Source: an uncultured virus (IMG/VR IMGVR_UViG_3300021142_000024) (Duplodnaviria > Heunggongvirae > Uroviricota > Caudoviricetes). From it: a stretch of 64,000 nucleotides of DNA. Shown piece after piece: positions 8,830-26,876 of this stretch. The notes beneath the pieces were generated by a model. The model was given only the letters and a program-made list of their open reading frames with translations. It was not told the origin of the DNA and ran no database searches. The position numbers were made by a program, and so were the translations under genes. Positions within the stretch are counted from its first letter, which is position 1, and each line of letters begins with the position of its first letter. Location: positions 1 to 64,000 of the IMG/VR virus record IMGVR_UViG_3300021142_000024; one strand, 5' to 3'.

Positions 8830-9237
8830 TCAATGATGTATTAAAGAAAAAAGAATATAACTTAGACCAATAAGGCAACCAATACTTGTAATTTTAATAC
8901 CAGATGTGAGTTTTTTATTATTCTTTGATAAATTATCAATATAAATTCTAGATATGCTATCTTTAGATTTATAAAGTTGAATTTGATTTTTAAAAGTCTC
9001 ATTATCAGTCTTAAAAGTTTTAATTACTGTGTCTTTATATTGTGACTCTTTTACAGTCAAATTTAGAATACTTAAAGTTAAGCTATCTTGCCTTTTTAGA
9101 CTATCATATGAAACTAGATCGTATGCTACTAATTTACCTACTTTATGAGAAAGATGTAGACTACTGTCCGTACCTGGATAAGAAAAAGCTGTCAAGCTCA
9201 GTAGGAGTGTAGTGAGAAATATGATTGTGAATTTCAT
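8830..9237 (-). CDS. secreted/membrane coiled-coil protein, possible spanin component
   Basis: Signal peptide, coiled coil, C-terminal TM; overlaps the upstream gene by 77 nt. Confidence 0.4.
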   Translation of the reverse strand: MKFTIIFLTTLLLSLTAFSYPGTDSSLHLSHKVGKLVAYDLVSYDSLKRQDSLTLSILNLTVKESQYKDTVIKTFKTDNETFKNQIQLYKSKDSISRIYIDNLSKNNKKLTSGIKITSIGCLIGLSYILFSLIHH

Positions 9238-9496
9238 TATACTTATTTTTAATGTAAATGTATTTTATTGTTTGTTTTTGAATTAGACTATCGACATATA
9301 CAATACTATCTTTGTAAATGTATATAACACTGTCTTGTTTTTTATGAACTGAGTCTAATTTAGAAATTTTATAATTTAAACTATCTATTTTATGATTAAA
9401 CTCAAATTCCCGTTTATTATGTAATTCTCTTTGATAATTTGTATAATAACCAAATATAATTACAATAATAATACAAAATCCTAGTACTTTACTCAT
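9161..9496 (-). CDS. N-anchored coiled-coil protein, possible i-spanin
   Basis: Single N-terminal TM followed by a helical region. Confidence 0.4.
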   Translation of the reverse strand: MSKVLGFCIIIVIIFGYYTNYQRELHNKREFEFNHKIDSLNYKISKLDSVHKKQDSVIYIYKDSIVYVDSLIQKQTIKYIYIKNKYNEIHNHISHYTPTELDSFFLSRYGQ

Positions 9497-9504
9497 AGTA
9501 TTAT

Positions 9505-9705
9505 TTACTTATTTTTTAGTTTAGTAGTGTCTTTATTAGTTTTAGCTGAATCAACCTTGGTTTTTGAAGAATCTGATACTGCCATTTTAACTGTATCTAC
9601 TTTTGAAATTTTAGTTGAATCTGATTTAGCTAGAGAGCTAGATGTTACTGAATTACAGCTTACAATTGTCATTGCTGTAATAAGTGAAAGCATGATTTTT
9701 TTCAT
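9505..9705 (-). CDS. small lipoprotein (true start 9705, not 9789)
   Basis: MKKIMLSLITAMTIVSC lipobox, low-complexity S/T/K/D tail; the track's upstream extension overlaps tRNA-Glu. Confidence 0.7.
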   Translation of the reverse strand: MKKIMLSLITAMTIVSCNSVTSSSLAKSDSTKISKVDTVKMAVSDSSKTKVDSAKTNKDTTKLKNK

Positions 9706-9731
9706 TTTGTTTTTATTTAAAAATTGGTTAG

Positions 9732-9804
9732 TATTCCTGATGGGTATCGATCCCACTCCTCTGCCTTGAAAGGGCAGCGACTCAACCATTTTGTCCTCAG
9801 GAAC
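9732..9804 (-). tRNA. tRNA-Glu(TTC)
   Basis: Cloverleaf GTTCCTG/CAGGAAT, anticodon arm CTGCC-CTTTCAA-GGCAG. Confidence 0.9.
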
Positions 9805-10054
9805 GATTAATTAAATTAATCTTTAAAGGAAAATACTTTTATGCAGTATAATATCCAGTAAAAGCGGGTTCTAAATAAGATGCCAGTTTTTTGATCTCAC
9901 TGTCTATAGGAGATCCACTCTTACTAAATCCAATAAATAGACTTGATGGCTTAATAGCCCTAAGTATAGAGCGTACCTTTTTACCATCTACTTCATGATC
10001 TTTAAAAATTACAATTTTCTTCATAGATTTTATTTTATTAATTTATTATTAAAA

Positions 10055-10457
10055 TAGTGGACATGTTGGGATTCGAACCCAAGTCTAACAATTAATCCTA
10101 TAAAACTCATTCACAAGCTTATTCTCGTTTTCTAACTAGACAAAATATATAAATCACTATTTATCGTGGTATTCAGTGCTGATTTAAACATCGTATTTAT
10201 AATGCTGGGTGTTCAATCATTTAAACCACTCACACTTTTGCAGGCACTTCTGTTTCTAGGGTATCATGCGACCCCACTGGACTAAGCCGCCATTGCGAAC
10301 TCACCATCAGCGAACGCCATAGCGTCCTCGAAAGTCCATGTAGATAATTCTACGTTTGCATTTATTTTTTATATAGGTTATTAAAGTGTTTCCAATACTA
10401 ACACTGCCTGCATCATTTTAAAGAACTACATTGCCATCAATTACCAATCTCATGCCC
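10055..10457 (-). ncRNA. ssrA: tmRNA
   Basis: Acceptor stem GGGCATG/CATGTCC with G3:U70, T-arm GGGTTCGAATCCC, internal tag ORF 10359-10282 ANVELSTWTFEDAMAFADGEFAMAA*. Confidence 0.93.
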
Positions 10458-10564
10458 GATTATTATCATTGATTATTATACTATAAATATACATACATAA
10501 ATTTAATTTAAAAAATTGATTTTTAAAGTCTTGTATTATTATGATTTATTTTTAGTATATATGA

Positions 10565-10888
10565 TTAATTATTTTTTCTTCTTTTTTGTCTTTTCTCATT
10601 TATTTTTTGAATCTGAGAACATAATTCATACTCTTCAAGTTCTATTAATTTTGGCATTTGAAGATTTAGGGTTTTTAAATATTCTTTTCTTTCAAGTGAA
10701 AAAGTAATTTCTTTAGATTCAGAAAATACAACTTGGAATATTTCAATTTTTGGTTTTTTATTTTTTATTGCCCATAAAATAGTCTTTACCATTTTTAATA
10801 CAAGATCAGAATCTTTATTTTTGATTTTATCAAAAAATTCACTCTGATTCTTAAATGATAATACATGTGCTGCCATTAATACTGTCAT
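10565..10888 (-). CDS. hypothetical protein with UVR-like EEYELC motif; paralogue-like to 40461-40805
   Basis: Shared C-terminal pattern (E/Q)E(E/D)Y(E/D)xCxxI. Confidence 0.55.
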   Translation of the reverse strand: MTVLMAAHVLSFKNQSEFFDKIKNKDSDLVLKMVKTILWAIKNKKPKIEIFQVVFSESKEITFSLERKEYLKTLNLQMPKLIELEEYELCSQIQKINEKRQKRRKNN

Positions 10889-11583
10889 GATTTTAGGTCT
10901 TCTACTCTAGTTATAGCACTAGGAGGTATATTATTTAAAGTGTAACAACCATTTGATTTATAATTTGGATCTTCATATAATTTAAAATAATCTCCAGGTA
11001 TTTTATCAGTATCTATAGAAAAAAGTGTCCAGTTTTTAATTCCAGTTTTATAAGTAAAATTATCAACTAAATATAATGCTGATTCTTTTGAAAGAGCTAA
11101 ATAAACTCTATCTGGATGGTAAGACGCCTTTGATCTAGATTTTGGAACTAGGCCAATTTTTTCTATTTTATTTGAATTTATAGTAGGGGCTATATGATAT
11201 AATATTTTAGGATATTTTTCTATAATTATATCAAATTTTGCCTCAAAAAATATTGAAAAAGTAACTCCGTCTTTTATATAATATTCTGCATATTTTTTCT
11301 CATATTTACCTACATATTCTTTAGATTGCATAAAAGAAGGAAACCAACCTAGATTATTAGCATCTTTAAGAAGATCATTAAATTTTGATAAATCTATTTT
11401 TTGTGAAAATATAACTTTAAAAGTATTATCAATATTATCACTTTTAAAATTTAAAATATTTGAATATTTTCTATGTAAAATAGACACTGTTTTATTTAAT
11501 TGCACAGTCTTTATTTCACCCTCTTTGAGGTTTATAGAATACTCTTCTTTATATAAATCTAAAAGTATATTTAGTAATTTCAC
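10885..11583 (-). CDS. protein with C-terminal ADP-ribosyltransferase-like domain
   Basis: LYH...IEKIGLVPKS...RVYL...NIPPSAI pattern. Confidence 0.45.
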   Translation of the reverse strand: MKLLNILLDLYKEEYSINLKEGEIKTVQLNKTVSILHRKYSNILNFKSDNIDNTFKVIFSQKIDLSKFNDLLKDANNLGWFPSFMQSKEYVGKYEKKYAEYYIKDGVTFSIFFEAKFDIIIEKYPKILYHIAPTINSNKIEKIGLVPKSRSKASYHPDRVYLALSKESALYLVDNFTYKTGIKNWTLFSIDTDKIPGDYFKLYEDPNYKSNGCYTLNNIPPSAITRVEDLKS

Positions 11584-11596
11584 ATTTATAAATATA

Positions 11597-13324
11597 TTAA
11601 TCTTCTTTAATAATGATTCTTTTTATAAACTCTTCAGGAAAATTATCATCAGATCTAGTTATAAGATCAGTAAGACATCCATCTAAAAAATATGTAATTG
11701 CCCAATCTGACTCTGATCTTACACTTCTACCAACTCCTTGAAGTATAGATGTACAGGTTTTCCAAGTATACCATCCTGGAGAGTATTTCATTTTCTCTGA
11801 AACATACTTATCTCCAATATAGGGATATGGCACTTTAAGGAATATTTGAAGTCTGCTTTTATCGTCTTTTAGATCCAGACCTTCTAGAAGAGAAGGGCCT
11901 ATAAGAATATTACCAGGAGTGGCTATAAATTTAGAAAGAACATCAATTTTCTCATCTGTACCTCTATACACATGAATTCTTCTTTGCTTAGATTTTGGTA
12001 GATTAAATAGTAGTTTTCTACCTAGATCATATGAGCCTGTATGTATTACTCCTGATTCTTTTGGATGAGCATCCATGATCTTTTCAACTGTCTTTACTAG
12101 CCATGATATATTTTTATCTATATCTTTCATGCCCATTCTACGATTAGGATAGTAATATATTGGTGATTTTGAGTAGTCAAATGAAGACTGCATCTTTTTA
12201 TAAAATGATTTACTAACTCCTATAGAATTTTCAAATTCTGATCTAGATCCCATAGTCGCAGTCATCATAAGTTTAAATCCAAATCTATCTAAAAAGTGCT
12301 TTTTCATAAGATACTTTTCATCTAGACAATTAAAAGTAATCTCTTGATCTTTCATACTCTTAATCATAAAATGCAGACCAGACTCTTCAACTATAGTAAT
12401 ATAATCTTCTATTTTACATAGTACATCTTTGACATAATCAAAATATTTAAATACATTTGACCACTCTTTTGAAACTAGATTATCTCCAAAAAGTTCTTTT
12501 GCCTTTTTCTGAACCTCATCTCTGTATGATTGGGCTTTGCCTAAGACAATCATAATGCGCTTCAGGGATGCCAAGAGAGCGCTTTTATCTTCTGTCTTAA
12601 TCATACTATCAATATTCTCTTTCAGTAGCTCTGTATTGACTAGAATACTTTTAAATCCAATATCGCTAAGACTTAAAACTAATTTAAGAACGTTATCATG
12701 TGTTTTATGAGATATTTTTGGGCTAAAATGTGTTTGAACTATATCTACTACTCTATGAGCTTCATCACATATTACAAAATCTCTAGTCTCAAATGCACTA
12801 CCATTTATAGATTTATCTTCTACGTAATTTCTCTGAATCAGTGCATATGAATAGGTTAGTAAACTCACTAGCGCCTCAATTGCCTGTTTTCTAGATTGGA
12901 AATACCCACATTGATTATAGCAATTTAATTTTTCAGAATCTTTATATGAAAGACCCTTATTCTTGCACTCTCCTAAAGAAAATTTTTCATTATTCAAAGA
13001 GCATATATAATTGTCTACACCCTTAATATAACCCCAATTATTAAACTTAAAATTTAAGATGTCTCTAGTATACTGCTCATGAAGACTGAGATCTGAAGTT
13101 AAAATATATCCAGTCTTAGATCTACTGGCCATAAAAGATGCAAAGAGAATGCCTATTATAGACTTTCCAGATCCAGTAGGGGCATCAAGAAGATAGACTC
13201 CATTTTTATCTTTATTGTAAGATTTTATAATATCTTCAACTACCTCTTTTTGGCCAGATCTGTATTTAAAATTAGGAAATTTAGATTTAACAAAACCGTC
13301 GAATTCTTTATAAGATATTGTCAT
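11597..13324 (-). CDS. DinG/Rad3-like SF2 helicase (likely start 13324)
   Basis: Q-motif RSGQ, APTGSGKS, Cys cluster, DEAH, MTAT, EGLD, QGVGRSVRS. Confidence 0.92.
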   Translation of the reverse strand: MTISYKEFDGFVKSKFPNFKYRSGQKEVVEDIIKSYNKDKNGVYLLDAPTGSGKSIIGILFASFMASRSKTGYILTSDLSLHEQYTRDILNFKFNNWGYIKGVDNYICSLNNEKFSLGECKNKGLSYKDSEKLNCYNQCGYFQSRKQAIEALVSLLTYSYALIQRNYVEDKSINGSAFETRDFVICDEAHRVVDIVQTHFSPKISHKTHDNVLKLVLSLSDIGFKSILVNTELLKENIDSMIKTEDKSALLASLKRIMIVLGKAQSYRDEVQKKAKELFGDNLVSKEWSNVFKYFDYVKDVLCKIEDYITIVEESGLHFMIKSMKDQEITFNCLDEKYLMKKHFLDRFGFKLMMTATMGSRSEFENSIGVSKSFYKKMQSSFDYSKSPIYYYPNRRMGMKDIDKNISWLVKTVEKIMDAHPKESGVIHTGSYDLGRKLLFNLPKSKQRRIHVYRGTDEKIDVLSKFIATPGNILIGPSLLEGLDLKDDKSRLQIFLKVPYPYIGDKYVSEKMKYSPGWYTWKTCTSILQGVGRSVRSESDWAITYFLDGCLTDLITRSDDNFPEEFIKRIIIKED

Positions 13325-13328
13325 AATA

Positions 13329-13814
13329 TTATTTACATAATTTATCAGCCACATAAGTAGCAGATATTGCATCTGGTTTACACCTTACAGTATAGCCCAA
13401 TGATTCTACATACCCTAATGCTGCTCTTAATGCTTGATTTGATTTAAATTGAGGATCTGGATTTAGATCTATGTCTATAAATGCAGGCTTTTTAATATTA
13501 AAAGATTTAAGATATTCAGCAATTTCAATAGATCTTTCTACTTCTGCCCATAGACGAGTAAATTCAACTTCAGTCTTGGCTGTCTGTTTTAGTATTTTAA
13601 TTCTAGGAATCCATTCAGTTGAGTAAAGAACATGACCTCCTCGACCTTTATTATGTAGGACTATTACAGTTGCATAGATAGTTTTACGTCCAATATTTTG
13701 AGAATCACAACCAATGTAAATATCAGTATTCTCATTTTTAAGTAAATAACTTTTTATATATGGAATAATGTCTATCTCTTGATTATCAGTTAAACTCTTA
13801 AATATTCGGTTCAT
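13329..13814 (-). CDS. RNase H-like YkuK/DUF458 family protein
   Basis: YIGCDSQ, GRGGHV, RLWAEVERS, DIDLN, KPDAISATYVAD. Confidence 0.85.
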   Translation of the reverse strand: MNRIFKSLTDNQEIDIIPYIKSYLLKNENTDIYIGCDSQNIGRKTIYATVIVLHNKGRGGHVLYSTEWIPRIKILKQTAKTEVEFTRLWAEVERSIEIAEYLKSFNIKKPAFIDIDLNPDPQFKSNQALRAALGYVESLGYTVRCKPDAISATYVADKLCK

Positions 13815-13850
13815 AAAATTAGATTTGCTTCATGTATAAATATATTTTAG

Positions 13851-13925
13851 AGGGCAATATTGGATTCGAACCAATGATTGTCTAGTTTTGCAGACCAGTG
13901 CCTTTAACCACTCAGCCAATTGCCC
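13851..13925 (-). tRNA. tRNA-Cys(GCA)
   Basis: Cloverleaf, loop CTGCAAA, U73. Confidence 0.92.
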
Positions 13926-13938
13926 AAATTGACAAATG

Positions 13939-14020
13939 TGCTCCAGGAGGGAATCGAACCCCCACTCCTTACGGAACCAGATCCTAAGTCTGACGCGGCT
14001 ACCAATTACGCCACTGGAGC
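13939..14020 (-). tRNA. tRNA-Leu(TAG)
   Basis: Class II cloverleaf, loop CTTAGGA. Confidence 0.93.
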
Positions 14021-14033
14021 AAGAAATTATATG

Positions 14034-14120
14034 TGCTTCTGGTCGGAGTCGAACCGACACGGACATTACTGTCCAAGGGATTTTAAGTCCCTCGCGTACT
14101 ACCTATTTCGCCACAGAAGC
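14034..14120 (-). tRNA. tRNA-Leu(TAA)
   Basis: Class II cloverleaf, loop CTTAAAA. Confidence 0.93.
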
Positions 14121-14131
14121 ATTTTTTATTG

Positions 14132-14205
14132 TACTTCGGATTGGATTCGAACCAATGACCCCCAGCTTAGAAGGCTGGTGCTCTATCCAGCTGAGCTACC
14201 GAAGC
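14132..14205 (-). tRNA. tRNA-Arg(TCT)
   Basis: Cloverleaf, loop CTTCTAA. Confidence 0.93.
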
Positions 14206-14216
14206 ATATTTTAGTG

Positions 14217-14288
14217 AGGACATACCCAGAACTGACCTGGGGACTCATGCTTACAAGGCAAGTATTTTTCCAATTAAACTACACGTCC
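14217..14288 (-). tRNA. atypical tRNA-Thr(TGT)
   Basis: Acceptor GGACGTG/TATGTCC, loop CTTGTAA, non-canonical T-loop GTCAGTT. Confidence 0.65.
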
Positions 14289-14446
14289 AAAATGAAGCTT
14301 TTAAATTATCCCCAGAGCTTCTCAACTGTGCTGGCATACGTTATGAATATGTTTCATATTCCTCCAGAGGTTTAGTGGCAGGTAGTGGATGCTATCCACC
14401 TTAACCAGACTTTCCTATCTTCGATCCCTTGGCCTTTGGGCTGTTG

Positions 14447-14518
14447 TTGCGAGGGCAGGATTCGAACCTGCGACCTTCTGGTTATGAGCCAGGTAAGCTA
14501 CCACTGCTCTACCTCACA
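14447..14518 (-). tRNA. tRNA-Met(CAT), initiator-like D-arm
   Basis: TAGAGCAGTGGTAGCT D-arm, loop CTCATAA. Confidence 0.88.
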
Positions 14519-14653
14519 ATATAATTTTAAAAAATGATAGTAGGTTATCAACATCTTTCTTGTTGTTATCAGCCCCTTTTTCGCCTATCATTTTTATTTG
14601 AGTATTATACTATAAAAGTACTAAAAGATTTTGATTATTTATTAGTATATCTT

Positions 14654-15337
14654 CTAAGTTTTATCTATAAAATTTCTTGCATCTTTTATTTTTTCTTTAG
14701 TATTATTAGACATATCAGTCCACTTTAATCTTAAAATAATCCATCCTAATTTTTCACAATATTCATCTTTTCTAATATCTCGTTGTCTATATTCTTCATA
14801 TCTTTGATGTTGTTCACCGTCTATTTCTATAGCTTTTTTTAATTTAGGCCAAGCAAAATCAAGCGAATATATTCCAATTGGATATTCAGACTTATATTCT
14901 TTATTAATAAATTCATTTTCTATAACTCGAGAAAAGAATTTTTCTGGATATGATTTTTCGTTATTCCATCTACTTTTTCCAATATTCCAAGCTCTACCTT
15001 CTTTATGAGCTTTTTTCATAGATATAGATAATTTTTCTATAGTCTCTTTTGAATGCTTTTTACCAATAGAACTTTTTTTAATTTTAGCTAATCTATCTAA
15101 TCTAAAGGGATTCAATTCACAATTAGTAGTATGAGCCCCTATTTTATTTTTGTCAAAATCATTAAAGCAGTATTTGCATACGCTATATAAAAGCTTCTGT
15201 TTTTCTAATCTTAATTTCCTAATACCAGTTTTTTCTCTACCTAATTTATAAGATTCTCCTCTATTGTGAGAAGAACAGTGTCCTATATACGCTTTTCTTT
15301 TTTCAAAGTCTTTATTGCATTTTTCACATCTATACAT
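14654..15337 (-). CDS. putative homing endonuclease (Zn finger, NUMOD3-like motif, DUF559/Vsr-like nuclease)
   Basis: CxxC..H..H N-terminus, KKHSKETIEKLS, YSLDFAW...AIEIDGEQH...RD...GWIILR; sits inside the tRNA array. Confidence 0.8.
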   Translation of the reverse strand: MYRCEKCNKDFEKRKAYIGHCSSHNRGESYKLGREKTGIRKLRLEKQKLLYSVCKYCFNDFDKNKIGAHTTNCELNPFRLDRLAKIKKSSIGKKHSKETIEKLSISMKKAHKEGRAWNIGKSRWNNEKSYPEKFFSRVIENEFINKEYKSEYPIGIYSLDFAWPKLKKAIEIDGEQHQRYEEYRQRDIRKDEYCEKLGWIILRLKWTDMSNNTKEKIKDARNFIDKT

Positions 15338-15386
15338 ATTTGTATTTTATTATAAATATAGCTCAATTGAAAAGTAGTTAACTGTG

Positions 15387-15471
15387 CGGGTAGGACAGGA
15401 TTCGAACCTGTGATGGTCTTGCGACACTGGATTAACAGTCCAGACTTTTCGGCCTCTAAAGCAACCTACCC
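15387..15471 (-). tRNA. tRNA-Asn(GTT) with long variable arm
   Basis: Loop CTGTTAA, G73, variable region TGTCGCAAGACCATC. Confidence 0.85.
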
Positions 15472-15482
15472 GTAATTTTGTG

Positions 15483-15555
15483 TGGAAATACCAGGATTCG
15501 AACCTGAATTAAATGAGTATCAGTCATTTGTGCTAAACCATTCTACTATATTTCC
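15483..15555 (-). tRNA. tRNA-Ile(GAT)
   Basis: Cloverleaf, loop CTGATAC. Confidence 0.88.
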
Positions 15556-15563
15556 AATTTGTG

Positions 15564-15650
15564 CGGAAAGCAGTGTAATCGAAACACAACCAAATTAATG
15601 ATCCACTCGCTTAGCAGGCGGTGACAACAAACCTCATTGCTTTACTTTCC
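15564..15650 (-). tRNA. tRNA-Ser(GCT)
   Basis: Class II, loop CTGCTAA, G73. Confidence 0.85.
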
Positions 15651-15654
15651 AATG

Positions 15655-15725
15655 TGTGACAGCGGGTAACGATCCCTATCTGACTGCTTCACAAGCAGGT
15701 GTGCTACCATTACACTACAGTCACC
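15655..15725 (-). tRNA. tRNA-His(GTG)
   Basis: Loop TTGTGAA, encoded G-1, T-loop ATCGTTA. Confidence 0.8.
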
Positions 15726-15733
15726 ATATTAAG

Positions 15734-15817
15734 CGGAGAAGTGAGGTATCGATCCCCATACCCGAAGGTACTCGCAGTTTTCAAGACTGGATCTAGCGCC
15801 AGCTAAATTACCTCTCC
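15734..15817 (-). tRNA. tRNA-Ser(TGA)
   Basis: Class II, loop CTTGAAA, G73. Confidence 0.88.
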
Positions 15818-15829
15818 AAAATTATTTTA

Positions 15830-15878
15830 CTGTCTCCTTTACAGTGGAGACTACTAACAATGTCCTTGTGAATATTAT
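15830..15878. repeat. 49-bp dispersed exact repeat, copy 1
   Basis: ctgtctcctttacagtggagactactaacaatgtccttgtgaatattat, identical to 19218-19266. Confidence 0.9.
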
Positions 15879-15879
15879 G

Positions 15880-15951
15880 TGCACCCTAAGGGGATTGAAC
15901 CCATGACCTCCACATTATGAGTGTGTTGCTCTACCGCTGAGCTAAAGGTGC
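15880..15951 (-). tRNA. tRNA(CAT): elongator Met or lysidine-type Ile2
   Basis: Cloverleaf, loop CTCATAA; identity cannot be resolved by eye. Confidence 0.88.
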
Positions 15952-16123
15952 AATATGTATGTAGCAACTGTCACAAGCTCTTAGAATCTACATACTAATT
16001 CAGGTTGTAAATCGGGCGATACCAATTACGCTTCACCCTTTCAAAATAACTATTACCTATCGGACGTCATCTTTAACCTTTTGGGATCCTAACCTCTCGG
16101 TCTCTAAAGGCTTATAGTTATTG

Positions 16124-16195
16124 TAGTCGCTAATGGAATCGAACCACTATCTTCGGGACCAAAACCCGACGTGTTAGCCTTTATACTAAGTGACT
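16124..16195 (-). tRNA. tRNA-Gln(TTG)
   Basis: TCGGG-TTTTGGT-CCCGA anticodon arm. Confidence 0.88.
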
Positions 16196-16245
16196 AGGTG
16201 TCCTCGGTTTTTTATAAGAGAACCGTGCACGGGTAAAAACTCTAT

Positions 16246-16319
16246 TGGAGTAGAATGTCAGAATCGAACTGACGCCACAGGCTTGGAAGGCTAGTGTACT
16301 ACCGCTATACTAATTCTAC
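16246..16319 (-). tRNA. tRNA-Gly(TCC)
   Basis: Loop CTTCCAA, U73, encoded CCA. Confidence 0.9.
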
Positions 16320-16400
16320 ATTCAGAAGTGCTTTTGATAAGTGCACTACAATTTCCTCTTAGATGGTTTACAATGTCTACGCCAACCAACAAACCCTACG

Positions 16401-16472
16401 TAGTCCATGTGAATTACGATATCACAACCTCTTGCATGTAAGGCAAGCGCTCTTCCATTGAGCTATGGGACT
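16401..16472 (-). tRNA. tRNA-Val(TAC)
   Basis: CTTGC-CTTACAT-GCAAG arm; T-loop ATCGTAA. Confidence 0.82.
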
Positions 16473-16554
16473 ATAGGGACGGTTAACTAACGCCCGCCAC
16501 AACTACCACCGCCAAGAATAGTTTTAGTGTGAGTTTTTAACCTCAATGCGTCTG

Positions 16555-16627
16555 TCTAGATGAAAGGTGACGATCCTTCCTAGTCTTGCTCCCAAAGCAA
16601 GTGCCTCACCAACTCGGCCACATCTAG
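16555..16627 (-). tRNA. tRNA-Pro(TGG)
   Basis: C1:G72, loop TTTGGGA, T-loop ATCGTCA. Confidence 0.88.
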
Positions 16628-16661
16628 ATATTTACTTTCCAATATGTCAAAGAACTAATTG

Positions 16662-16734
16662 TACTCTCAAAGTGATTCGAACACTTATCTCTAGATCCGT
16701 AGTCTAGTATTCTACTCCATTGAACTATAAGAGC
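16662..16734 (-). tRNA. tRNA-Arg(ACG)
   Basis: CTAGA-CTACGGA-TCTAG arm. Confidence 0.9.
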
Positions 16735-16738
16735 ATTT

Positions 16739-16814
16739 TGGCACGCACGTAGGGATTCGAACCCTCATCTTTGGTTTTGGAGACCAATACTCTAGCCATT
16801 TGAGCTACGCACGC
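16739..16814 (-). tRNA. tRNA-Trp(CCA)
   Basis: Loop CTCCAAA, G73, encoded CCA. Confidence 0.93.
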
Positions 16815-16822
16815 AATTTATA

Positions 16823-17068
16823 TTATCTATATTTTCTTATGAGTTTAAAAAGTTCTCTTATATCTGTGAATTTTAATTCTTGTCCTGGCTTTATGGGAAT
16901 GAACGCTATTGTAAATCCATGATTGCCACAAAAATAATCTTCCTTTTTTATCCTGTTACCATTCACGCTATCGACATATATCCAAGGAAAGTTACCTGCA
17001 AGTTTTACTTCTATCCCAAGTCGTTTCATCCTGTCTATGAATACCATCAATATATCTTTCTGCTTCAT
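16823..17068 (-). CDS. hypothetical protein
   Basis: 81 aa ORF; has its own TACTTTTA promoter-like motif at about 17084-17091. Confidence 0.65.
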   Translation of the reverse strand: MKQKDILMVFIDRMKRLGIEVKLAGNFPWIYVDSVNGNRIKKEDYFCGNHGFTIAFIPIKPGQELKFTDIRELFKLIRKYR

Positions 17069-17152
17069 TTCCTATTGATATTATAAAAGTAAAATTAATT
17101 TTTGATATTTTAAAGCTTTTTTAAGTATTTTTATTTTTTTATTATTTAAATT

Positions 17153-17189
17153 AAAAAAGCCCTGAGAGTTTGTATTTCCCAGGGCTTTT
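17153..17189 (-). terminator. intrinsic terminator of putative attenuator
   Basis: AAAAGCCCTGGGA-loop-TCTCAGGGC-TTTTTT on the minus strand. Confidence 0.85.
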
Positions 17190-17208
17190 AAAATATAATT
17201 GAGTAAAT

Positions 17209-17349
17209 TTATTTATCCATATTATATTGCCCTGGGCTGTATCTAGATTTATCTTGCATATTATTGAGTGTAATATAACAAGAGCCTAGTGAGGTCGTCG
17301 GTACGCGTCCTAATTGCCAATTATTGATATGTATATTACCTTGTGTCAT
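17209..17349 (-). CDS. putative attenuator leader peptide (46 aa, not in ORF track)
   Basis: MTQGNIHINNWQLGRVPTTSLGSCYITLNNMQDKSRYSPGQYNMDK*; preceded by GATATTTATAG motif; contains antiterminator strand 17221-17236. Confidence 0.75.
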   Translation of the reverse strand: MTQGNIHINNWQLGRVPTTSLGSCYITLNNMQDKSRYSPGQYNMDK

Positions 17350-17544
17350 TTTCTATAAATATCATACTTTTGAATAAAAAATAGATTTTAATTTTTATTT
17401 TAGTATTAGCATATTAAATCTTGTATTTAGGGGAAATCATAACGTGGAGTAAAATCCAATATTACTTCTCTAAAAAATTTAATAGGTTTCTTTTCCTTTT
17501 TTTCTTGGTTATCCTCACCAATGACAATACATTTTATTTTCATA

Positions 17545-17958
17545 TTATATAAGTGATAATGCGTGTTCAATTGCTTTTTGTCTTACTTCTTCATAATTAT
17601 TAGACCAGTCTTGGGTTGAATCGTCATTTTCTATGCCATACTCTTCTCCAACCCACACAGTAAAAATATATTGAGCTGTTTCTTTAGTTAACCCACCTAA
17701 AAACTGCACTTCAATTATAATATTATACTTCTTCCTAAACCAGTCTATGACTTGCTGCCACAAGGGTAATGAGTAGGACATATCGTACTTATTCCAGTCA
17801 TCACACTTAATTTTGCCTTCAGGAGTACTAGATCCATATATATACCGATCTACATTATTACCAGTATCTCCAGTATAAACGTAGGCCATACAAGGTTCAT
17901 CAAAACCTCTTTGCTTTAGTACTTCTGCTATTGATAGTGGCACAAATTGTTCTTTCAT
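17545..17958 (-). CDS. hypothetical protein
   Basis: FVP..IA..LK..GFDEPC and PLWQQVIDWFR motifs common in Bacteroidetes phage hypotheticals. Confidence 0.7.
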   Translation of the reverse strand: MKEQFVPLSIAEVLKQRGFDEPCMAYVYTGDTGNNVDRYIYGSSTPEGKIKCDDWNKYDMSYSLPLWQQVIDWFRKKYNIIIEVQFLGGLTKETAQYIFTVWVGEEYGIENDDSTQDWSNNYEEVRQKAIEHALSLI

Positions 17959-17961
17959 TTT

Positions 17962-18177
17962 TTACTTTTTAAGTGGATAGATTACATCTACGAGTTTGCT
18001 TGCCATACTTGATTTTACTTCAAAATCCTTAATATATAGGGATTCAAAATGCGCATGGACTCTAGCTTCACTCTCTGTTACTGATTCCGCATCGACTAGA
18101 TATTTCACTGTCTCTTTTCTTACTTTTTCTGAATTAGGATCAATAGTCCTAAATTCTACTTTTACTTCAAAAAACAT
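17962..18177 (-). CDS. DUF4494 family protein
   Basis: FEVKV...KYLVDAESVTESEARV...FEVKS. Confidence 0.75.
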   Translation of the reverse strand: MFFEVKVEFRTIDPNSEKVRKETVKYLVDAESVTESEARVHAHFESLYIKDFEVKSSMASKLVDVIYPLKK

Positions 18178-18438
18178 ATTTTATTTTTTAGTTTTATTTA
18201 AATAACGAATTAATAATTCTATTGGAATACCTACTGATAATGTAAGTAAAATTATACCAGATAAAAAATAAAGAATGCCTGTTTTATTTATTAACCAAAA
18301 AGAAATATTACATAGTACTATTATAATTGATAATAATATTACAAATATTGCTATCTTTTTAAGTGGATATTGCTTTATCATATCGATTTATTACAGTGTA
18401 AAAGTAATTAAAAAAAGTGATCTTATAGTATTTTATTT

Positions 18439-18924
18439 CTAAGTAGTAGTATATTTTTTTCCTAAACTTGTAATAGCTTCTATTGCTGTAGGTAAATCAA
18501 TATTGAAAAATTCTCTATTATTAGAAACTCGGTATTGATCTAGATATTTATGTATTTCACTTTCTAAAAATTCACCCTCATTACATCTGAAAATATACTC
18601 TACAATAAAAGGAGTAGCCACGCCAGTAGCAGATGATATTTGCTGAGCTCTGTCTTTAGGATCTTGTTTTGTATAACCTATTTTTAGCAGATTTGGCATA
18701 GATTGATTTGACAGCACATATATCCAATATCTTCCAGAGCCTAGATCATTAGAATATGATTTACGTCTAGAGGTATAATATGTGACATCATCCCAGTCTT
18801 CCATACCTGGAATAGTACATGGCGTTATAGTAAAATATGCAGCTGGATAATCCAATACATCATCAGTTTTAGATATATATTGATCTGCCTCTTGAGGAGT
18901 TAATCTTATTATAGATTTTTTCAT
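18439..18924 (-). CDS. T5orf172/GIY-YIG domain protein
   Basis: WIYVLSN.SMPNLLKIGYT...RA.QIS.ATGV..PF...REFF. Confidence 0.88.
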   Translation of the reverse strand: MKKSIIRLTPQEADQYISKTDDVLDYPAAYFTITPCTIPGMEDWDDVTYYTSRRKSYSNDLGSGRYWIYVLSNQSMPNLLKIGYTKQDPKDRAQQISSATGVATPFIVEYIFRCNEGEFLESEIHKYLDQYRVSNNREFFNIDLPTAIEAITSLGKKYTTT

Positions 18925-19149
18925 ACTATAGCATCATTATGATTAAGGCAAAAAGACCAATGCTCCACCATGGCATAAAAATAAAAATAATCATTTCTAC
19001 TAAAAGACTGAATTTAAACATCTGTAATAAAGTCAATCCTAAATCATTTGCAAATAGTAGTGAGATTAATGGTACTGCAAATATGATCAATATAGTAAAT
19101 ATGATCTTCCTTAAAATATGTAATGCCTTCATTTTAATTAAATTAAAAA

Positions 19150-20925: not shown

Positions 20926-21467
20926 CTAGTACTCTGCTAGCACCTGCTTAATACTTGCCACCAGGTCGCTCATAGAGAATTTGCCTTCTATAGCATGGAG
21001 ATATGCATTATTTATATCACCTAGTAATTTTTCAGCGGTAGGCACCTCTTTAACTTTAAGTTGTCGTATATACTTCCAATAAGACGTATTATGATCTTTA
21101 CTTGCTTTATAATCTGATTCATCATCTTCTATTACACTGTCCAGTGTAAATTTCTATTTGGTGTTGAGTAGAGATATATTCTTTCCAGCCAAGTTATTTT
21201 ATTATTTGATACTTCTACCAGTTCTCCAGTCTTTGGTACCCAATCTTCATATAATTCAAAGCAATCTACTGGATGATTATAATCATATCCTTTGAGTAGT
21301 ATAAAATCATCAGATTGACCTACGCCATTATTATTAACATGGTCCACTTCATAGATTTCTCCAAGTTGAAGGCAGTCGAGATCTATAAAATCCAATGAAT
21401 AATTATAAAATTTACTTTGCTTTGTTACTAGCTTTACACTATCTCCGATTTTAAATTTTGGCGTCAT
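20926..21467 (-). pseudogene. frameshifted paralogue of 19513-20028
   Basis: After the stop at 21132, another frame continues VIEDDESDYKASKDHNTSYWKYIRQLK..., matching the paralogue's ...EERYKSG...TWPYIRKPK. Confidence 0.65.
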
Positions 21468-21546
21468 ATCTTCTAGTTATTTATTATACTATAAAAGTAA
21501 GTGATTATTTTGACTTAATAAAACTTTTTAGAGGATATTTTTTCCC

Positions 21547-22251
21547 TTAATTTATTGAATTAAACAGGGCTTCTATATACTGTATTGTTGGGTAATAATT
21601 ACCTCTGCCTTGATATTTTTTATCAACAGCGGCTTTAAGTTCTTCGAGTGTGCCTCTAAAACAGCCAGCCGATATCATTTTATTGGAGAATGTGATGGTG
21701 ATTATCCTACTTATTTCTCCTAAAGATGATATTGTCATATAATCTGATGTCTTCTCAACCTTAGCATTACCATATACCAGAGCATTACCAGATACATGAG
21801 CATTACCAGATACATGAGCATTACCAGATACTTTAGCATCACCAGATACTTTAGCATTACCAGATACTTTAGCATCACCAGATACATGAGCATTACCAAA
21901 TACCAGAGCATTACCAGATACTTTAGCATTACCAGATACCCAAGTATTACCAGATACATAAGCATTACCAGATACTTTAGCATTACCATATACCTGAGCA
22001 TTACCAAATACCCAAGCATTACCAGATACTTTAGCATTACCAGATACATGAGCATTACCAGATACTTTAGCATCACCAAATACCTGAGCATTACCAGATA
22101 CCCAGGCATTTTCGGTTAAGTTATTTATCGTCTCGATAAAGCCGCCTTTTGTTCCAGCTTTGCCCCATTTACAATCTTCAGTTAGTTCAATACGGTAGAG
22201 TGGTTTATCATTAAATTGTATTGATTCGTCAGTTAATTTATACGGTGTCAT
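21547..22251 (-). CDS. hexapeptide-repeat (beta-helix) protein
   Basis: 20 x (N/D)AxV(S/F/Y)G repeats between LYRI..KGGFIE and AGCFRGTLEE segments. Confidence 0.85.
   Translation of the reverse strand: MTPYKLTDESIQFNDKPLYRIELTEDCKWGKAGTKGGFIETINNLTENAWVSGNAQVFGDAKVSGNAHVSGNAKVSGNAWVFGNAQVYGNAKVSGNAYVSGNTWVSGNAKVSGNALVFGNAHVSGDAKVSGNAKVSGDAKVSGNAHVSGNAHVSGNALVYGNAKVEKTSDYMTISSLGEISRIITITFSNKMISAGCFRGTLEELKAAVDKKYQGRGNYYPTIQYIEALFNSIN
21751..22110 (-). repeat. 18-bp coding tandem repeat, about 20 units
   Basis: agcattaccagatacttt and variants. Confidence 0.92.
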
Positions 22252-22401
22252 ATCTTTTAGTTATTTAGTATGATGTAAAAGTAAGTGATTATTTTGAGAT
22301 TATAAAGCTTCTAGTCAAATATTTATTTTTGTACTATGATATTCTATATATCAAAAAGGCCCACTATTATGTGAGCCTCTTCTACAACTAAACAACACAA
22401 C

Positions 22402-23235
22402 TTATTTTATAATTTCATATTTTTCAGCCAAAGTCCATAGGTCCTGGTTGATATTAAGCTCTGCGATTGGATTTTTAATGGCACGCGCCTCACGATTATT
22501 GAGTGAAAAACCGCCTTTAACCAGGCCTTCCTGTATAACATTATAGGTTAGCCACAAAGATTTGCCAGTGTCTTCTTTACGTCTAGGCTGCAGCAAATCA
22601 AGTATTTCATATTGCTCTGGAAGACGATCATCTGACAGTCTTAGGGCCAGAGCCTCTGTTGCAAATTGAAAACGCTGCTTGTCTGTCATTTCAATCATAT
22701 TCCAGGTATTGATCTTATTTACAGCCTGCTCCATATCTACTATCTTATGGCTGACTATATCCTTAATCTCTGCCTGAGTGTATTTGATATGACGCTCTTT
22801 CATTGAGCCAAAGTCTTGAGTCTTGATTACCAACCCGTTACTACATACCAACCTAAAAATGCCGGCTTCAATCTGAAGAGGACGATCACCATTAGAATTG
22901 TTAATTACAACTATCTCTGGACGACCTTCAATACCTCCGCGATCATCTTTCATATAGAGATCTTGATTTTGGAAATGCATGATATGAGTGCCATAGGTAG
23001 TGTAGAGAGAGCTGTCATTTTTGCTCTTTGACTGCTTTACATTTGTAAGCTGCCAGCCTTGACTATCGAGATGTTCTATCAAGTCCTTAGAAGATACAAA
23101 CTTATAATTTGAGCTAAGGCGTGGATGTGGACCTGGAGCTGAGATACCAGGTGCTCGTTGGATTGCTGACTCGAGTGACATTACTGAGATCTGATTGTTC
23201 TTGTTGCCTTGCGCTAAAACTGTTTGATTTTCCAT
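22402..23235 (-). CDS. DUF932/DUF945 family protein
   Basis: S.NYKFV, PEIVVINNS.G, AGIFRLVCSNGLV, PRR.ED..SLW.TYNVIQE. Confidence 0.88.
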   Translation of the reverse strand: MENQTVLAQGNKNNQISVMSLESAIQRAPGISAPGPHPRLSSNYKFVSSKDLIEHLDSQGWQLTNVKQSKSKNDSSLYTTYGTHIMHFQNQDLYMKDDRGGIEGRPEIVVINNSNGDRPLQIEAGIFRLVCSNGLVIKTQDFGSMKERHIKYTQAEIKDIVSHKIVDMEQAVNKINTWNMIEMTDKQRFQFATEALALRLSDDRLPEQYEILDLLQPRRKEDTGKSLWLTYNVIQEGLVKGGFSLNNREARAIKNPIAELNINQDLWTLAEKYEIIK

Positions 23236-23598
23236 AACTGTTATTTTTTTAGTTGTTTAGTGTGATGTAAAAGTAAGAGATTGTTTTGACTTAAAAAAAC
23301 TTTTTAGAGGATATTTTTTTACTCCATATCTTTTTCTTTGCCTGGTATAGACAAGTCATATTCTTCAAAAGTATCTACCATAGCCTGATAAGCTGTTGAG
23401 CCACTCATCCAGTTATACACTAGATATTCTAATATTTCTTTGTCGCTCATATCCCACTCATCTCTGAGTATATCAAGAAGTTTAAATGCTCCATTGCGAT
23501 CTGCTGTTATATTTGCCATATCTTTTAGTTGTTTAGTGTAGTGTAAAAGTAAGAAAAATACCTGAGACTTTATAATTTTATCTCAGGTATTTATTTCT

Positions 23599-24573
23599 TT
23601 AATTTAATATGCCTAATTCCAAATCTGCACCACTACGATTAATTATAAATTGGATTGGGATATTGTCTGTAGCGTCTGAGGCATCATTCTCGGCTTCATC
23701 TACTATATAGCCATAATGTATGTCGTTATTTGATAATTGATAGCTCCATTTATTATCTGATTGACCATTCCTATTTTTCGTGAATACTATATATGTGCCA
23801 CCACCATCAGACATTTTCTCTCTCTTCATTTCCATGTGTGCATCAACTAAATGTTTTACTTTATTACTACCTACAAAAGTACCGTTTTTAGTAACTTGTT
23901 GGATAAGTAAAAATGATGTGTAGGCTTTGCGATCATTCTGGCCCTCATTATGATTAATGCACAAATCAATTATCCACTTCTCAGCCTCTTTAATACTCAT
24001 ACTAGTATTCTCTTTTACTGACTCAAGAACTTCTGCGAGAGAGTCAATAAGCACATAGTCATAACCTTCTTTAAGCAGGCCCTCGATCACATCTTTCATA
24101 TTATCATTAAGATAATCGGCTGCAATCAAAGTCTTAACACAACCAAATACAGGAAATCTTTGCATATATTTGAAAAGTTGTATTTTGCCCATTTCACATG
24201 ATATAAACAGGCATTTCAGATCTGGATTATTTTTTTGCATATGTGCTAAGGTGTGCAATAGAACAGTTGTTTTCCCAACACCTGGATCTCCGGTACACAT
24301 TATATTTGTACCAACTGGCAGGCCACCTTCATATGAGATAAGTTTATCAATTGCCAATCCACTCTTATATGTTTTTAGCATATTATCATTTACATTGATA
24401 GCATCAAGTGACTTGACTTTATCAAATGATATTGGCTTCTTATCTACTACTTTAATTTCACCATTTACTAGTAAACGACCTCTTGATGTAAGGTACTCAT
24501 CTACTGAGATACCAAGTTGTTTAGCTTTTAGCTGTGCATAATACCTTTGAGAATAACTTAGTTGATTTGACAT
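23599..24573 (-). CDS. RadA/Sms-like RecA-family ATPase
   Basis: GDPGVGKT Walker A, FISCEM, LIDS Walker B, QVTK.G.FVG.N..KHLVD, KNR.G. Confidence 0.85.
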   Translation of the reverse strand: MSNQLSYSQRYYAQLKAKQLGISVDEYLTSRGRLLVNGEIKVVDKKPISFDKVKSLDAINVNDNMLKTYKSGLAIDKLISYEGGLPVGTNIMCTGDPGVGKTTVLLHTLAHMQKNNPDLKCLFISCEMGKIQLFKYMQRFPVFGCVKTLIAADYLNDNMKDVIEGLLKEGYDYVLIDSLAEVLESVKENTSMSIKEAEKWIIDLCINHNEGQNDRKAYTSFLLIQQVTKNGTFVGSNKVKHLVDAHMEMKREKMSDGGGTYIVFTKNRNGQSDNKWSYQLSNNDIHYGYIVDEAENDASDATDNIPIQFIINRSGADLELGILN

Positions 24574-25129
24574 TTCTTTTAGTTGTTTAGTGTAGTGTAA
24601 AAGTAAGAGATACTTTTCAAATAATAAAGTCCTAAATTAGATATTTGTTCTTATAATATGGGGGGAGTCCCCTATAACCCCCTAATACTATATTAGTTTT
24701 CTGGAGTAGATTTATATTTCTTAGTCTTCTTTTTATTATACTTTGTAGTTATTTCTTTTTATTATCTGGAGTAGGTAGGATTAACTTTAAATTTTCTATT
24801 AGTCAAGTTTTTTTAGTATATTCTCCAGAATTCTCTCTGTTAGAGTCAGCCTATATTATAGAATATAATTAAATATATCACCCGCCCTTATAGATGAATA
24901 ATTTAATAGTAATTATATGTGATCTTACAATATTGATAAAAATCAGATTGCATTCACGACTTACCGATGGGCGTCCTAGCGCGGGCATGCGTTCAGTCCG
25001 AAATTATTCAAAAGGTAACCAGGGCCATCACTGTAAGATTTAATTGACCAGATCCAACAATCATTTACAATTGAAGTCTAGTAGTTTATATTTACCAGGT
25101 ATTCTACCACCACCTGTGAATTGAGGCAT

Positions 25130-25157
25130 AAAAAAAGCGCCTCTAAAGAGAAGCGCT
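25130..25157 (-). terminator. intrinsic terminator-like hairpin in non-coding region
   Basis: AGCGCTTCT-CTTT-AGAGGCGCT followed by a T run. Confidence 0.75.
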
Positions 25158-25621
25158 GTAATTTTTTCAGGTGGCTTTTAAGCCCTATGGTGACGACCCT
25201 GAATATTGAATGTAAAAAATTTAAACTAAATTATAGTATTGAGTATTTTGGTCGTCACACCTTACATGCTCTCGTACTGTAATAAATATCATGATTTTTC
25301 TCTCGTTTCGTTCAAAGTAGAAATTTTATATATAAAAGTTTAGAAGAATATCCAAATTTTTCTATAACCATCTCCTGTGCCAATAATGAACTAGACGCGG
25401 ATATTATCTCTGTCTGTTTTTTAATTCTATAGTACACTCAAAGATAAAATCCATAATACAATTATATATAATATAGAATAGAAAATAAAATCTATTTAGC
25501 AAGTTTAGAAAAAATCCCCTATTTCTAGAGGACTCTCAATGCCAAGGGAGGAATTATTTTGCATTAAAGTGAGCAGAGGAGAGAATATTATACTCACTTT
25601 ATTATCTATTCTGTAAAATTA

Positions 25622-26065
25622 CTATTCATATTGATGATCTGCAGTGATGTCTTCAAGAGTGATCAGTTTATATGTCATAGCTGCTTTTATCACTTCAAGA
25701 AATGCTGGGATAATTACATCTTGACAGCCAACTTTGATACCATTACTATCTATTTCTGCAGTGTAATTAGATGAGGTTACGTGTTCAATTTTAATTGATT
25801 TATGACCTTCAAATAGGGCTACAAATTCCTCTACTGTATTTACAGATTTGCAATCATTATTATTAATCCAATTTTCATTAGTCTGAGTCATCAAAATTCT
25901 ATCAAACATGATATAAGGATATTCAGAATCATATTCTCTAGTATTATTATAGACTGGTACACCAAGTAGTCGCAAATATTTAATTGCGAGAGTGATTTTT
26001 GCTGGATCTACCTCTTTACAGAATACTTGTGTATTAGGTAGTGTAAATGATTGTGCTGTGCTCAT
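25622..26065 (-). CDS. hypothetical early protein
   Basis: ORF directly behind a promoter cassette. Confidence 0.7.
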   Translation of the reverse strand: MSTAQSFTLPNTQVFCKEVDPAKITLAIKYLRLLGVPVYNNTREYDSEYPYIMFDRILMTQTNENWINNNDCKSVNTVEEFVALFEGHKSIKIEHVTSSNYTAEIDSNGIKVGCQDVIIPAFLEVIKAAMTYKLITLEDITADHQYE

Positions 26066-26876
26066 ATCTTTTAGTTGTTTTGAGAGGCAAATTCATTTAG
26101 CCTCAAGTAAAAGTAAGAGATTATTTTGAGAATATAAAGCTTTTATCTCAGGTATTTGTTTTTCTACTATGATATTTTTCCTATGAGTGTAATTGCTATT
26201 TGCCAATATTCATAAAACTCATCCTGGTCCATATCATCTCCATATTTATAAAACACATCATCATATATCTCATCTTCGCTATCAGCTTTTATCAGAGTTA
26301 TAACGGAATCTCCAAAATCATCATCAATATTAGATACTGATACTGCATACAAATTTTTTCCATTTCCGTGTACTTGTGCTTTTGGATCGAGCGTGATTAT
26401 TGTCTTTGCCATTGTATTTAGTTATTTTGAGAGGCAAATTCATTTAGCCTCAAGTAAAAGTAAGAAATTATTTTGAGAATATAAAGCTTTTAGTCAGATA
26501 TTTTTTATATTAATCCCTCTTTGGATTTAATCTAAGATCGCAGCCAGCAAGGTGTAAATTAGTAATAGAAAACATAAGAGCTATTTTGCTTTTACATTTT
26601 GAGATCTCATTAATCCAGTAAGCTCTAGTCTTATCACTTACTGAAGTTTCTTGATCATTTAGAACAGAAATGAATTCAGATTTAATATCCACCTCTGTCA
26701 TCTTGTCCATACGACCTATTAAGCTTTCTACTTTGGCTGTGATTGAGCTTTGTGATTTTGAAAGATTATACATATGTTTTAGTTATTTTGAGAGGCAAAT
26801 TCATTTAGCCTCAAGTAAAAGTATAAAAAATACCTGAGACTTTGCACTTTTATCTCAGGTATTTGTTTTTCTACTA

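Follow-up and report, generated by a model that had tools for sequence, protein, structure and literature searches.

We analyzed a window of 64,000 nucleotides (nt), the first 64 kb of the 75.6-kb IMG/VR record IMGVR_UViG_3300021142_000024 of an uncultured Caudoviricetes phage from a lake (completeness ∼48%; window G+C 30%). On its minus strand, which carries nearly all long open reading frames (ORFs), a 46-codon leader ORF (ORF46) and an intrinsic terminator precede an array of tRNA genes. Sequence comparison and computed folds indicate that this element is probably a ribosome-mediated leader-peptide transcription attenuator, which would make tRNA expression demand-driven. A segment of the ORF is complementary to the terminator 5′ arm, the leader codons match the tRNA set of the array, and in larger relatives with two leaders each leader matches its own block of tRNAs. 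The features on which the argument turns are:

17209..17349, minus strand: leader ORF (ORF46), 46 codons plus stop codon TAA.
17251..17346, minus strand: putative sensor part of the leader, codons 2–33, placed from constraint folds and the excess of cognate codons.
17289–17243, minus strand: predicted hairpin inside the leader (ORF nt 61–107), just 5′ of the antiterminator strand.
17221..17236, minus strand: antiterminator 5′ strand, codons 38–43, made of CCCAGGGC (17236–17229) and AATATAAT (17228–17221).
17192..17199, minus strand: 3′ strand of the inner helix, ATTATATT; the resulting hairpin encloses the stop codon.
17153..17189, minus strand: intrinsic terminator with A-tract, arms, loop and T6, also recovered by folding.
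13850..16814, minus strand: tRNA array, 18 genes with 17 distinct anticodons for 14 amino acids (ARAGORN and Rfam).

The leader is predicted to form two mutually exclusive hairpins

The 5′ arm of the terminator (GCCCTGGGA, 17185–17177) and its 3′ arm (TCTCAGGGC, 17167–17159) are separated by a 9-nt loop. The 9-bp core (−14.5 kcal/mol) is extended by A4/T4, the 13-bp stem is retained in the full-length minimum free energy (MFE) fold, and a run of six T residues follows at 17158–17153. An automated terminator scan with a loop limit of 3–8 nt did not call this hairpin, a miss that we attribute to the 9-nt loop. Within the ORF, CCCAGGGC is exactly complementary to GCCCTGGG (17185–17178) of the terminator, and the adjoining AATATAAT is exactly complementary to ATTATATT (17199–17192). 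The initial annotation, made from the sequence alone, had described this ORF, this terminator and these complementarities, and all are present exactly as it gave them.

The complementarity is not expected by chance. The motif GCCCWGGG has 3 matches in the 64 kb (0.25 expected, and 3 reached in 0 of 100 shuffles) and is confined to the two partner sites. When the 5′ arm was paired with the 170 nt upstream, the most stable duplex had −19.7 kcal/mol, compared with −7.7 ± 2.0 kcal/mol in shuffles, none of which (0/2000) equaled it. Among 10 terminator-like hairpins on the coding strand, the one at 17189–17153 alone has an upstream partner (z = −6.1); z values for the other nine lie between −1.3 and +1.5. 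The z-score of the leader fold itself was −3.5.

The terminator conformer (−39.9 kcal/mol) is more stable than the antiterminator conformer (−34.8 kcal/mol) by ∼5 kcal/mol, and when the terminator 3′ arm was absent or blocked the antiterminator became the MFE fold (−34.8 kcal/mol). Transcripts truncated before the 3′ arm adopted the antiterminator fold in 7/7 representatives. A ribosome was then mimicked by blocking 28 nt around the A-site codon, an assumed footprint size. The antiterminator formed when codon 20, 28 or 33 was in the A site, and was prevented when it was codon 36, 40 or 44, in agreement with the mutually exclusive hairpins that had been predicted. With the ribosome at the stop codon the program paired both 8-mers across the blocked stretch, which appears sterically unlikely. 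By this model, a ribosome stalled within codons 2–33 would leave the antiterminator free, and the division that the initial annotation had drawn after codon 32 coincides with the modeled physical boundary of antiterminator blocking. The hairpin at ORF nt 61–107 was 77.9% paired in four relatives, compared with 24–53% in slid registers, with no compensatory change; it may be a pause or an anti-antiterminator element.

The leader codons match the tRNAs of the array

Default ARAGORN called 15 of the array tRNAs. Rfam added Thr(TGT) at 14217–14288 and a type-II tRNA at 15735–15817, read as Ser(TGA) by relaxed ARAGORN; Ser(GCT) at 15563–15650 is marginal and was called by relaxed ARAGORN only. The array is the one claimed at the outset, with 18 genes for 14 amino acids. 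To this has to be added a tRNA-Glu(TTC) outside the array at 9732–9804 (minus strand), ∼4 kb further on behind protein genes. No further tRNA was found in the rest of the 75.6-kb record.

ORF46 was compared with 10,430 random 46-codon windows drawn from the 52 long ORFs of the phage, with strict wobble. It has a cognate codon for 17/17 distinct anticodons, and so for all 18 tRNAs, as had been claimed; only 4 of the 10,430 windows did as well (∼4e-4), so that the permutation check proposed with that claim came out in its favor. Strictly cognate codons account for 32/46 positions (random mean 21.1, P = 3.5e-3). The excess is largest in codons 1–32, where 25 codons are cognate (random mean 14.9), a count reached by 0 of the 10,430 windows. 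These 32 codons encode the 14 amino acids served by the array plus Tyr; Lys, Glu, Asp, Phe and Ala are missing from them (P = 3.8e-4), and the unserved Asp and Lys codons stand at positions 33–34 and 45–46. Counting bore out the earlier description on this point, and also on the 31 distinct codons (mildly unusual, P = 0.04) and the stretch of codons 11–29 in which no codon is used twice.

One part of that description did not survive. The diversity of the leader, the “sampling” of many codons, had been taken as a signal, but ORF46 encodes 17 amino-acid types, an ordinary number (P = 0.63), and diversity is ruled out as the signal for the window. Because cognate coverage is rare although the amino-acid types are ordinary, what stands out in the leader is its agreement with the tRNAs of the array rather than its variety.

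Close relatives keep the ORF, the terminator and the antiterminator

The ORF46 family comprises 9 loci with 4 distinct sequences at 73–76% nucleotide identity; blastn of positions 16800–18200 against the phage GenBank collection gave 0 matches. Conservation extends from ∼12 nt before the ATG to past the T-run, the flanks differ, and one group has another gene on the upstream side. All four distinct relatives keep the frame open, with a C-terminus that varies in frame (42–47 codons). The ratio of non-synonymous to synonymous substitution rates (dN/dS) was 0.40–0.53 between the window and its relatives and 0.14–0.25 among the relatives, and amino-acid identity was ∼52%, compared with 96% for the neighboring gene. 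The terminator was 100% paired across the cells of the four distinct relatives. The antiterminator was paired in 85.9% of cells, compared with 25–48% in slid registers, and showed one compensatory change, A-U to G-C, in the inner helix (pair 128/158).

In these relatives a tRNA-Phe starts ∼13 nt past the T-run. As this leaves no room for a promoter, their first tRNAs must be transcribed through the terminator. Ala, Phe, Lys, Asp and Tyr tRNAs are among those encoded in their arrays. Where Ala and Phe tRNAs are present the leaders carry two Ala and one or two Phe codons; the window lacks both these tRNAs and these codons. The relatives’ leaders cover 18/19, 18/20 and 17/21 anticodons.

A dissimilar leader with the same layout in wider relatives

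Phages whose 81-codon array ORF (see below) is 58–62% identical to that of the window have a different small ORF, leader 1, at the same place. Leader 1 has 29–34 codons with the core HTMSFTICSKWADER, and was found at 44 loci (29 distinct sequences). Its layout is a TTG...TAnnTTTG box, the ORF, a small hairpin around the stop codon, and a terminator (terminator 1), with a tRNA within 3–10 nt past terminator 1 in most copies. Homology between ORF46 and leader 1 was not supported (hhalign probability 0.3%, E = 0.21), nor was a W-x3-R-x4-S-L-G spacing common to the two that had been seen by eye, and neither ORF belongs to a Pfam or PHROG family. A GAGAC near the start of some leader-1 copies was considered as an anti-antiterminator and rejected, as it is not conserved.

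The 53 loci of either type and the window make 54 rows (38 distinct). The leader frame is open in all of them despite 25% divergence, and the one 3-nt insertion is in frame. A same-strand tRNA lies downstream in 54/54 rows, less than 400 nt from the leader stop in 52; in the two others, which are of one sequence, it lies at +1121.

In leader 1 an ORF segment at codons 24–27 is complementary to the terminator 5′ arm. A fixed-register, codon-anchored comparison of the 29 distinct sequences gave 83.1% of cells paired, compared with 21–49% in slid registers, and compensatory changes in 5/10 pairs, a level that 0 of 2000 partner shuffles reached. Examples are TCCCGAGGT:ACCTCGGGA to TCTCGAGGT:ACCTCGAGA and GTCTCGAG:CTCGAGAC to TTCCGAG:CTCGGAA. 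The 5′ arm binds its own ORF better than those of others (−9.35 vs. −7.16 kcal/mol; 0/10,000 permutations). A weak spot is that the duplex had a shuffle z below −2 in 14/29 sequences only. Antiterminator covariation is significant in the leader-1 family, not in the ORF46 family.

The first gene past terminator 1 in most leader-1 loci (L022, 3544–3615) is tRNA-like, with an anticodon loop TTTGCAA; default ARAGORN misses it, and at a relaxed threshold it is called Ala(TGC).

Two leaders in one phage match their own tRNA blocks

Larger relatives have a second terminator (ACCCGAAC...GTTCGGGT6) directly before tRNA-Leu(TAA). It is preceded by a promoter box and leader 2, an ORF of 33–36 codons (MKN[IL]NNI..RP.NNGNGYGVQP...). 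All 17 distinct leader-2 regions contain GTTCGG, a copy of the terminator 3′ arm. Block 1 holds Ala, Ile, Phe, Lys, Trp, Arg-ACG, Cys, His, Met, Asp, Ser-TGA and Glu tRNAs, and block 2 Leu, Arg-TCT, Pro, Asn, Leu, Tyr, Met, Val, Gly, Thr, Gly, Gln and Ser-GCT tRNAs.

Fourteen phages carry both leaders and have no fewer than 10 tRNAs in each block; we analyzed all of them, calling tRNAs at the relaxed ARAGORN threshold, some miscalls included. Leader 1 codons are cognate to block 1 and leader 2 codons to block 2 in 14/14 phages (Fisher 1e-9 to 7e-4 per phage, in tests that are non-independent because the phages are related). The leader-by-block tables were, for example, [[19,0],[1,17]] in L114 and [[16,3],[2,18]] in L115. 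Random re-partition of the anticodons equaled the observed match in 0–1 of 5000 trials, and tables built from whole ORFs passed too (p 4e-8 to 0.024). The split extends to isoacceptors: leader 1 uses Arg CGT/CGC and Ser TCG/TCA, leader 2 Arg AGA and Ser AGT.

Leader codons also co-vary with block moves or losses of Val(TAC), Gln(TTG), Lys(TTT) and Thr(TGT), in 14/14 phages each. In three phages Val(TAC) lies in block 1 and leader 1 has a Val codon. In L114, where Gln(TTG) moved to block 1, the leader-1 core acquired Gln and leader 2 lost it; in L108 Lys(TTT) and the core Lys codon are both lost; and five phages without Thr(TGT) in block 2 have no Thr codon in leader 2. There are exceptions. 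Leader 1 retains a Thr codon where Thr(TGT) sits in block 2, its A-rich codons 2–5 (AGA, CAA) often belong to block 2, and for the Val codon of L104 and L112 no Val tRNA was seen in block 1. The relatives had been proposed as a further check, and in them the ORF/terminator/antiterminator layout is kept and leader codons track tRNA content by block, gains and losses. These data lend support to the attenuator interpretation that the initial annotation had put forward.

Promoter-like motifs and neighboring genes

The following features lie around the leader and terminator of the window:

17354..17362, minus strand: ATATTTATA motif, a possible promoter element.
17082..17091, minus strand: second, putative promoter-like motif TACTTTTA / ACTTTTATA, a 2-mismatch variant of ATATTTATA.
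16823..17068, minus strand: 81-codon ORF between the terminator and the first tRNA (phrog_38683).

ATATTTATA has 15 matches in the window, a number that 4 of 100 shuffles attained (9.4 expected). On the minus strand, six of nine copies lie 3–24 nt before a gene start, and copies precede five genes besides the leader, the transfer-messenger RNA (tmRNA) gene among them. The motif is conserved in L088/L082 and present as a variant in L084. A sigma-70 promoter scan of the window was uninformative (30 sites vs. 26 expected), and a TAnnTTTG motif (a Bacteroidota-type consensus) was not enriched in the window (107 vs. 97 ± 11). The TTG...TAnnTTTG box before leader 1 we take to be of the Bacteroidota promoter type; a TAnnTTTG box is present before the relatives’ leaders and has no bearing on the promoters of the window phage. 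A Shine-Dalgarno motif precedes 0/52 genes of the phage. As the motif is absent from its genes generally, the lack of one before the leader is no argument against translation.

In L089–L131 the ∼60 nt between terminator 2 and tRNA-Leu(TAA) contain a conserved promoter-like box, TTTG-N19-TAnnTTTG, the first element of which runs into the T-run of terminator 2; a conserved GTTCTTTGACAT[AT]TTG box comes next. There is no room for a promoter after terminator 1, nor after the ORF46 terminator in the relatives of the window.

The 81-aa phrog_38683 protein is conserved in the tRNA arrays of phages sharing 58–62% identity in it (e.g., L022, 4001–4243), always near tRNA-Trp and tRNA-Arg. Inside the window array lies a 227-aa DUF559/NUMOD3 homing-endonuclease-like ORF (14654–15337, minus strand). 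The relative L081 differs from the window exactly at this region, where five tRNAs (named below) are missing and extra Met(CAT) genes are present. A tmRNA (10057–10457, minus strand; tag ANVELSTWTFEDAMAFADGEFAMAA*) has a ATATTTATA motif before it at 10490–10482 and the lone tRNA-Glu(TTC) after it; the two genes look like a unit separate from the array. ARAGORN called a tRNA with a 4-base anticodon (CCTA) in L084 (12629–12704), and tRNAs with the amber-reading anticodon CTA were called in the arrays of L097 and L126; all of these are possibly suppressors or miscalls. Elsewhere in the window, terminator-like hairpins at 23558, 26830 and 29187 (minus strand) have the common arm TACCTGAGAT, and five genes with starts at 21467–28045 have the common upstream context CTAAAAGAT|ATG, which suggests a tandemly repeated gene module.

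Proposed mechanism and alternative explanations

In trp- and his-type attenuators the leading ribosome is coupled to RNA polymerase, and stalling gives read-through. We infer, by analogy, a similar coupling, footprint and response here. The leader, most of whose codons are read by tRNAs of the array, would be translated. A ribosome moving at full speed would cover codons 36–46 as the polymerase synthesizes the terminator, so that the 5′ arm GCCCUGGGA would pair with its own 3′ arm and transcription would stop. If charged tRNA were scarce and the ribosome lagged at an earlier codon, CCCAGGGC-AAUAUAAU would pair first with AUUAUAUU and GCCCUGGG, the antiterminator would block the terminator, and polymerase would continue toward the tRNA genes. 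The outcome would be negative feedback, in which slow decoding of array codons raises tRNA supply; the direction and size of the effect and its physiological trigger are likewise presumed from this scheme.

Several points weigh against such an attenuator. Within ORF46, 14/46 codons are non-cognate under strict wobble, with three Tyr, two Asp and two Lys codons that have no phage tRNA; the leader offers most tRNAs one to three codons and no runs; the amino-acid types are ordinary in number, as noted; and tRNA-Glu(TTC) has no codon in it. The record is ∼48% complete, and further tRNAs may sit elsewhere. L081 is 99% identical and has the same leader, but five tRNAs (His, Ser, Ser, Ile and Asn) are missing from it, so that the leader-tRNA match is not obligatory. 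Covariation in the ORF46 family is not significant (4 sequences, 1 compensatory pair, 122/500 shuffles), the leader-2 antiterminator is the truncated MFE in 9/17 regions only, and the kinship of the two-leader phages limits the per-phage tests as stated. A dN/dS of 0.14–0.53 indicates amino-acid constraint, and a functional peptide would give the same. The candidate ATATTTATA promoter ends 4 nt before the ATG, which implies a leaderless mRNA or another promoter. A promoter-like box stands after terminator 2 in relatives too, and in the window the 81-codon ORF and a promoter-like motif separate the terminator from the array. Given these two, the window attenuator may control only part of array expression, adding to a basal level rather than acting as sole gate.

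The same observations can be read in other ways. It is unlikely, in our judgment, that the element is a translation-coupled switch reporting global translation capacity or infection stage, with the codon match a by-product of codon usage. Its geometry needs only a lagging ribosome, single codons represent most tRNAs, the A-rich codons 2–5 of leader 1 often match tRNAs of the other block, and L081 retains its leader after the loss of five tRNAs, all of which such a switch would accommodate. Codon usage, however, cannot account for the block-specific match in 14/14 phages, for the Arg/Ser isoacceptor split or for the 14/14 co-variation with tRNA moves, and random windows of the phage’s own ORFs rarely match. 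We hold it quite improbable that the ORF encodes a functional micro-protein, or a sequence-specific arrest peptide responsive to a small molecule or factor, to whose arrest the terminator switch would react. Purifying selection (the dN/dS values above) and the per-position conservation of the leader-1 core HTMSFTICSKWADER with synonymous variation would fit; the ORF46 family, though, evolves fast (∼52% vs. 96% amino-acid identity of the neighbor) and matches no recognized family, and an arrest motif does not predict a leader composition that tracks the downstream tRNA block.

That an ordinary small gene with an insulating terminator was mistaken for a switch, the array being transcribed from the downstream motif and the complement and coverage being coincidental, seems very improbable. 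The promoter-like motif at 17091–17082 and the ORF between terminator and array would fit such a gene, and the feature was picked by the initial annotation after being seen. Coincidence is nevertheless hard to reconcile with a complement of z = −6.1 that is the sole case among 10 terminators and unique in 64 kb, with a coverage of P ∼4e-4, with the occurrence of this layout in three leader types that look unrelated (hhalign probability 0.3%), or with tRNAs that begin 3–13 nt past the T-run in relatives. Least probable of all is an RNA-only switch, whether riboswitch- or T-box-like or a processing or stability hairpin, for which translation of the ORF would be unneeded. Parts of the leaders are highly conserved at the nucleotide level and the fold z-score is −3.5, which would suit such an RNA. 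Against it, an Rfam search of 9000–19000 at E ≤ 1 returned tRNAs, the tmRNA and chance-level matches only, among them a snoRNA on the opposite strand; T-boxes and other cis-regulatory families were absent. All 54 rows keep the frame open despite 25% divergence, length changes and the 3-nt insertion are in frame, third positions vary synonymously, and the match exists at the codon-anticodon level.

Relation to known attenuators and implications

The trp, his, leu and pheA operons are enterobacterial amino-acid operons under leader-peptide attenuation. The element described here shares with them a short open ORF, an intrinsic terminator, an exclusive antiterminator, codons cognate to the product, and a geometry in which slow decoding would lead to read-through. 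It differs in what is regulated, enzymes there and phage tRNAs here; in the leader, which has a run of codons for one amino acid there and 1–7 codons for each of 14 amino acids here; and in the antiterminator 5′ strand, which lies inside the ORF here and past the stop codon there. Unlike in trp, no clear 1:2 anti-antiterminator was found. The thr (Thr and Ile) and ilvGMEDA (Ile, Leu, Val) attenuators also integrate several amino acids in one leader, but they read 2–3 amino acids by repeated codons, compared with 17 anticodons here. In E. coli pheST with its leader pheM, a translation-machinery gene is under cognate-codon leader-peptide attenuation; that gene is a synthetase, one amino acid is sensed, and no tRNA genes are regulated. 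T-box riboswitches similarly let tRNA status decide between terminator and antiterminator before translation-related genes, but they bind uncharged tRNA directly and need no ORF, and the window has no T-box match. The element thus has the structural features of a leader-peptide attenuator and differs from the classical ones in regulated product, many-amino-acid leader and antiterminator strand position. Full-text literature searches, in which papers were represented by listings and abstracts and subscription journals were thinly covered, returned no description of phage tRNA-array attenuation.

Why and when phages use tRNA arrays is debated, with codon-usage compensation, host shut-off and escape from tRNA-cleaving defences among the proposals. 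We suggest, tentatively and as a doubtful rather than a likely generalization, that tRNA arrays are modular self-regulating units, each block gated by its own leader, in which the capacity of the infected cell to decode phage genes would be measured codon by codon, and replacement tRNAs switched on upon depletion, lack of charging or anticodon-nuclease cleavage of host tRNAs. Arrays of this kind would be both an inducible counter-defence and a general translational homeostat. The block-specific leaders provide a natural internal control, and a compact, programmable sensor for available tRNAs could be built on this design. If the attenuator reading is true, tRNA genes can be under the feedback logic of amino-acid operons and the phage would read decoding speed directly.

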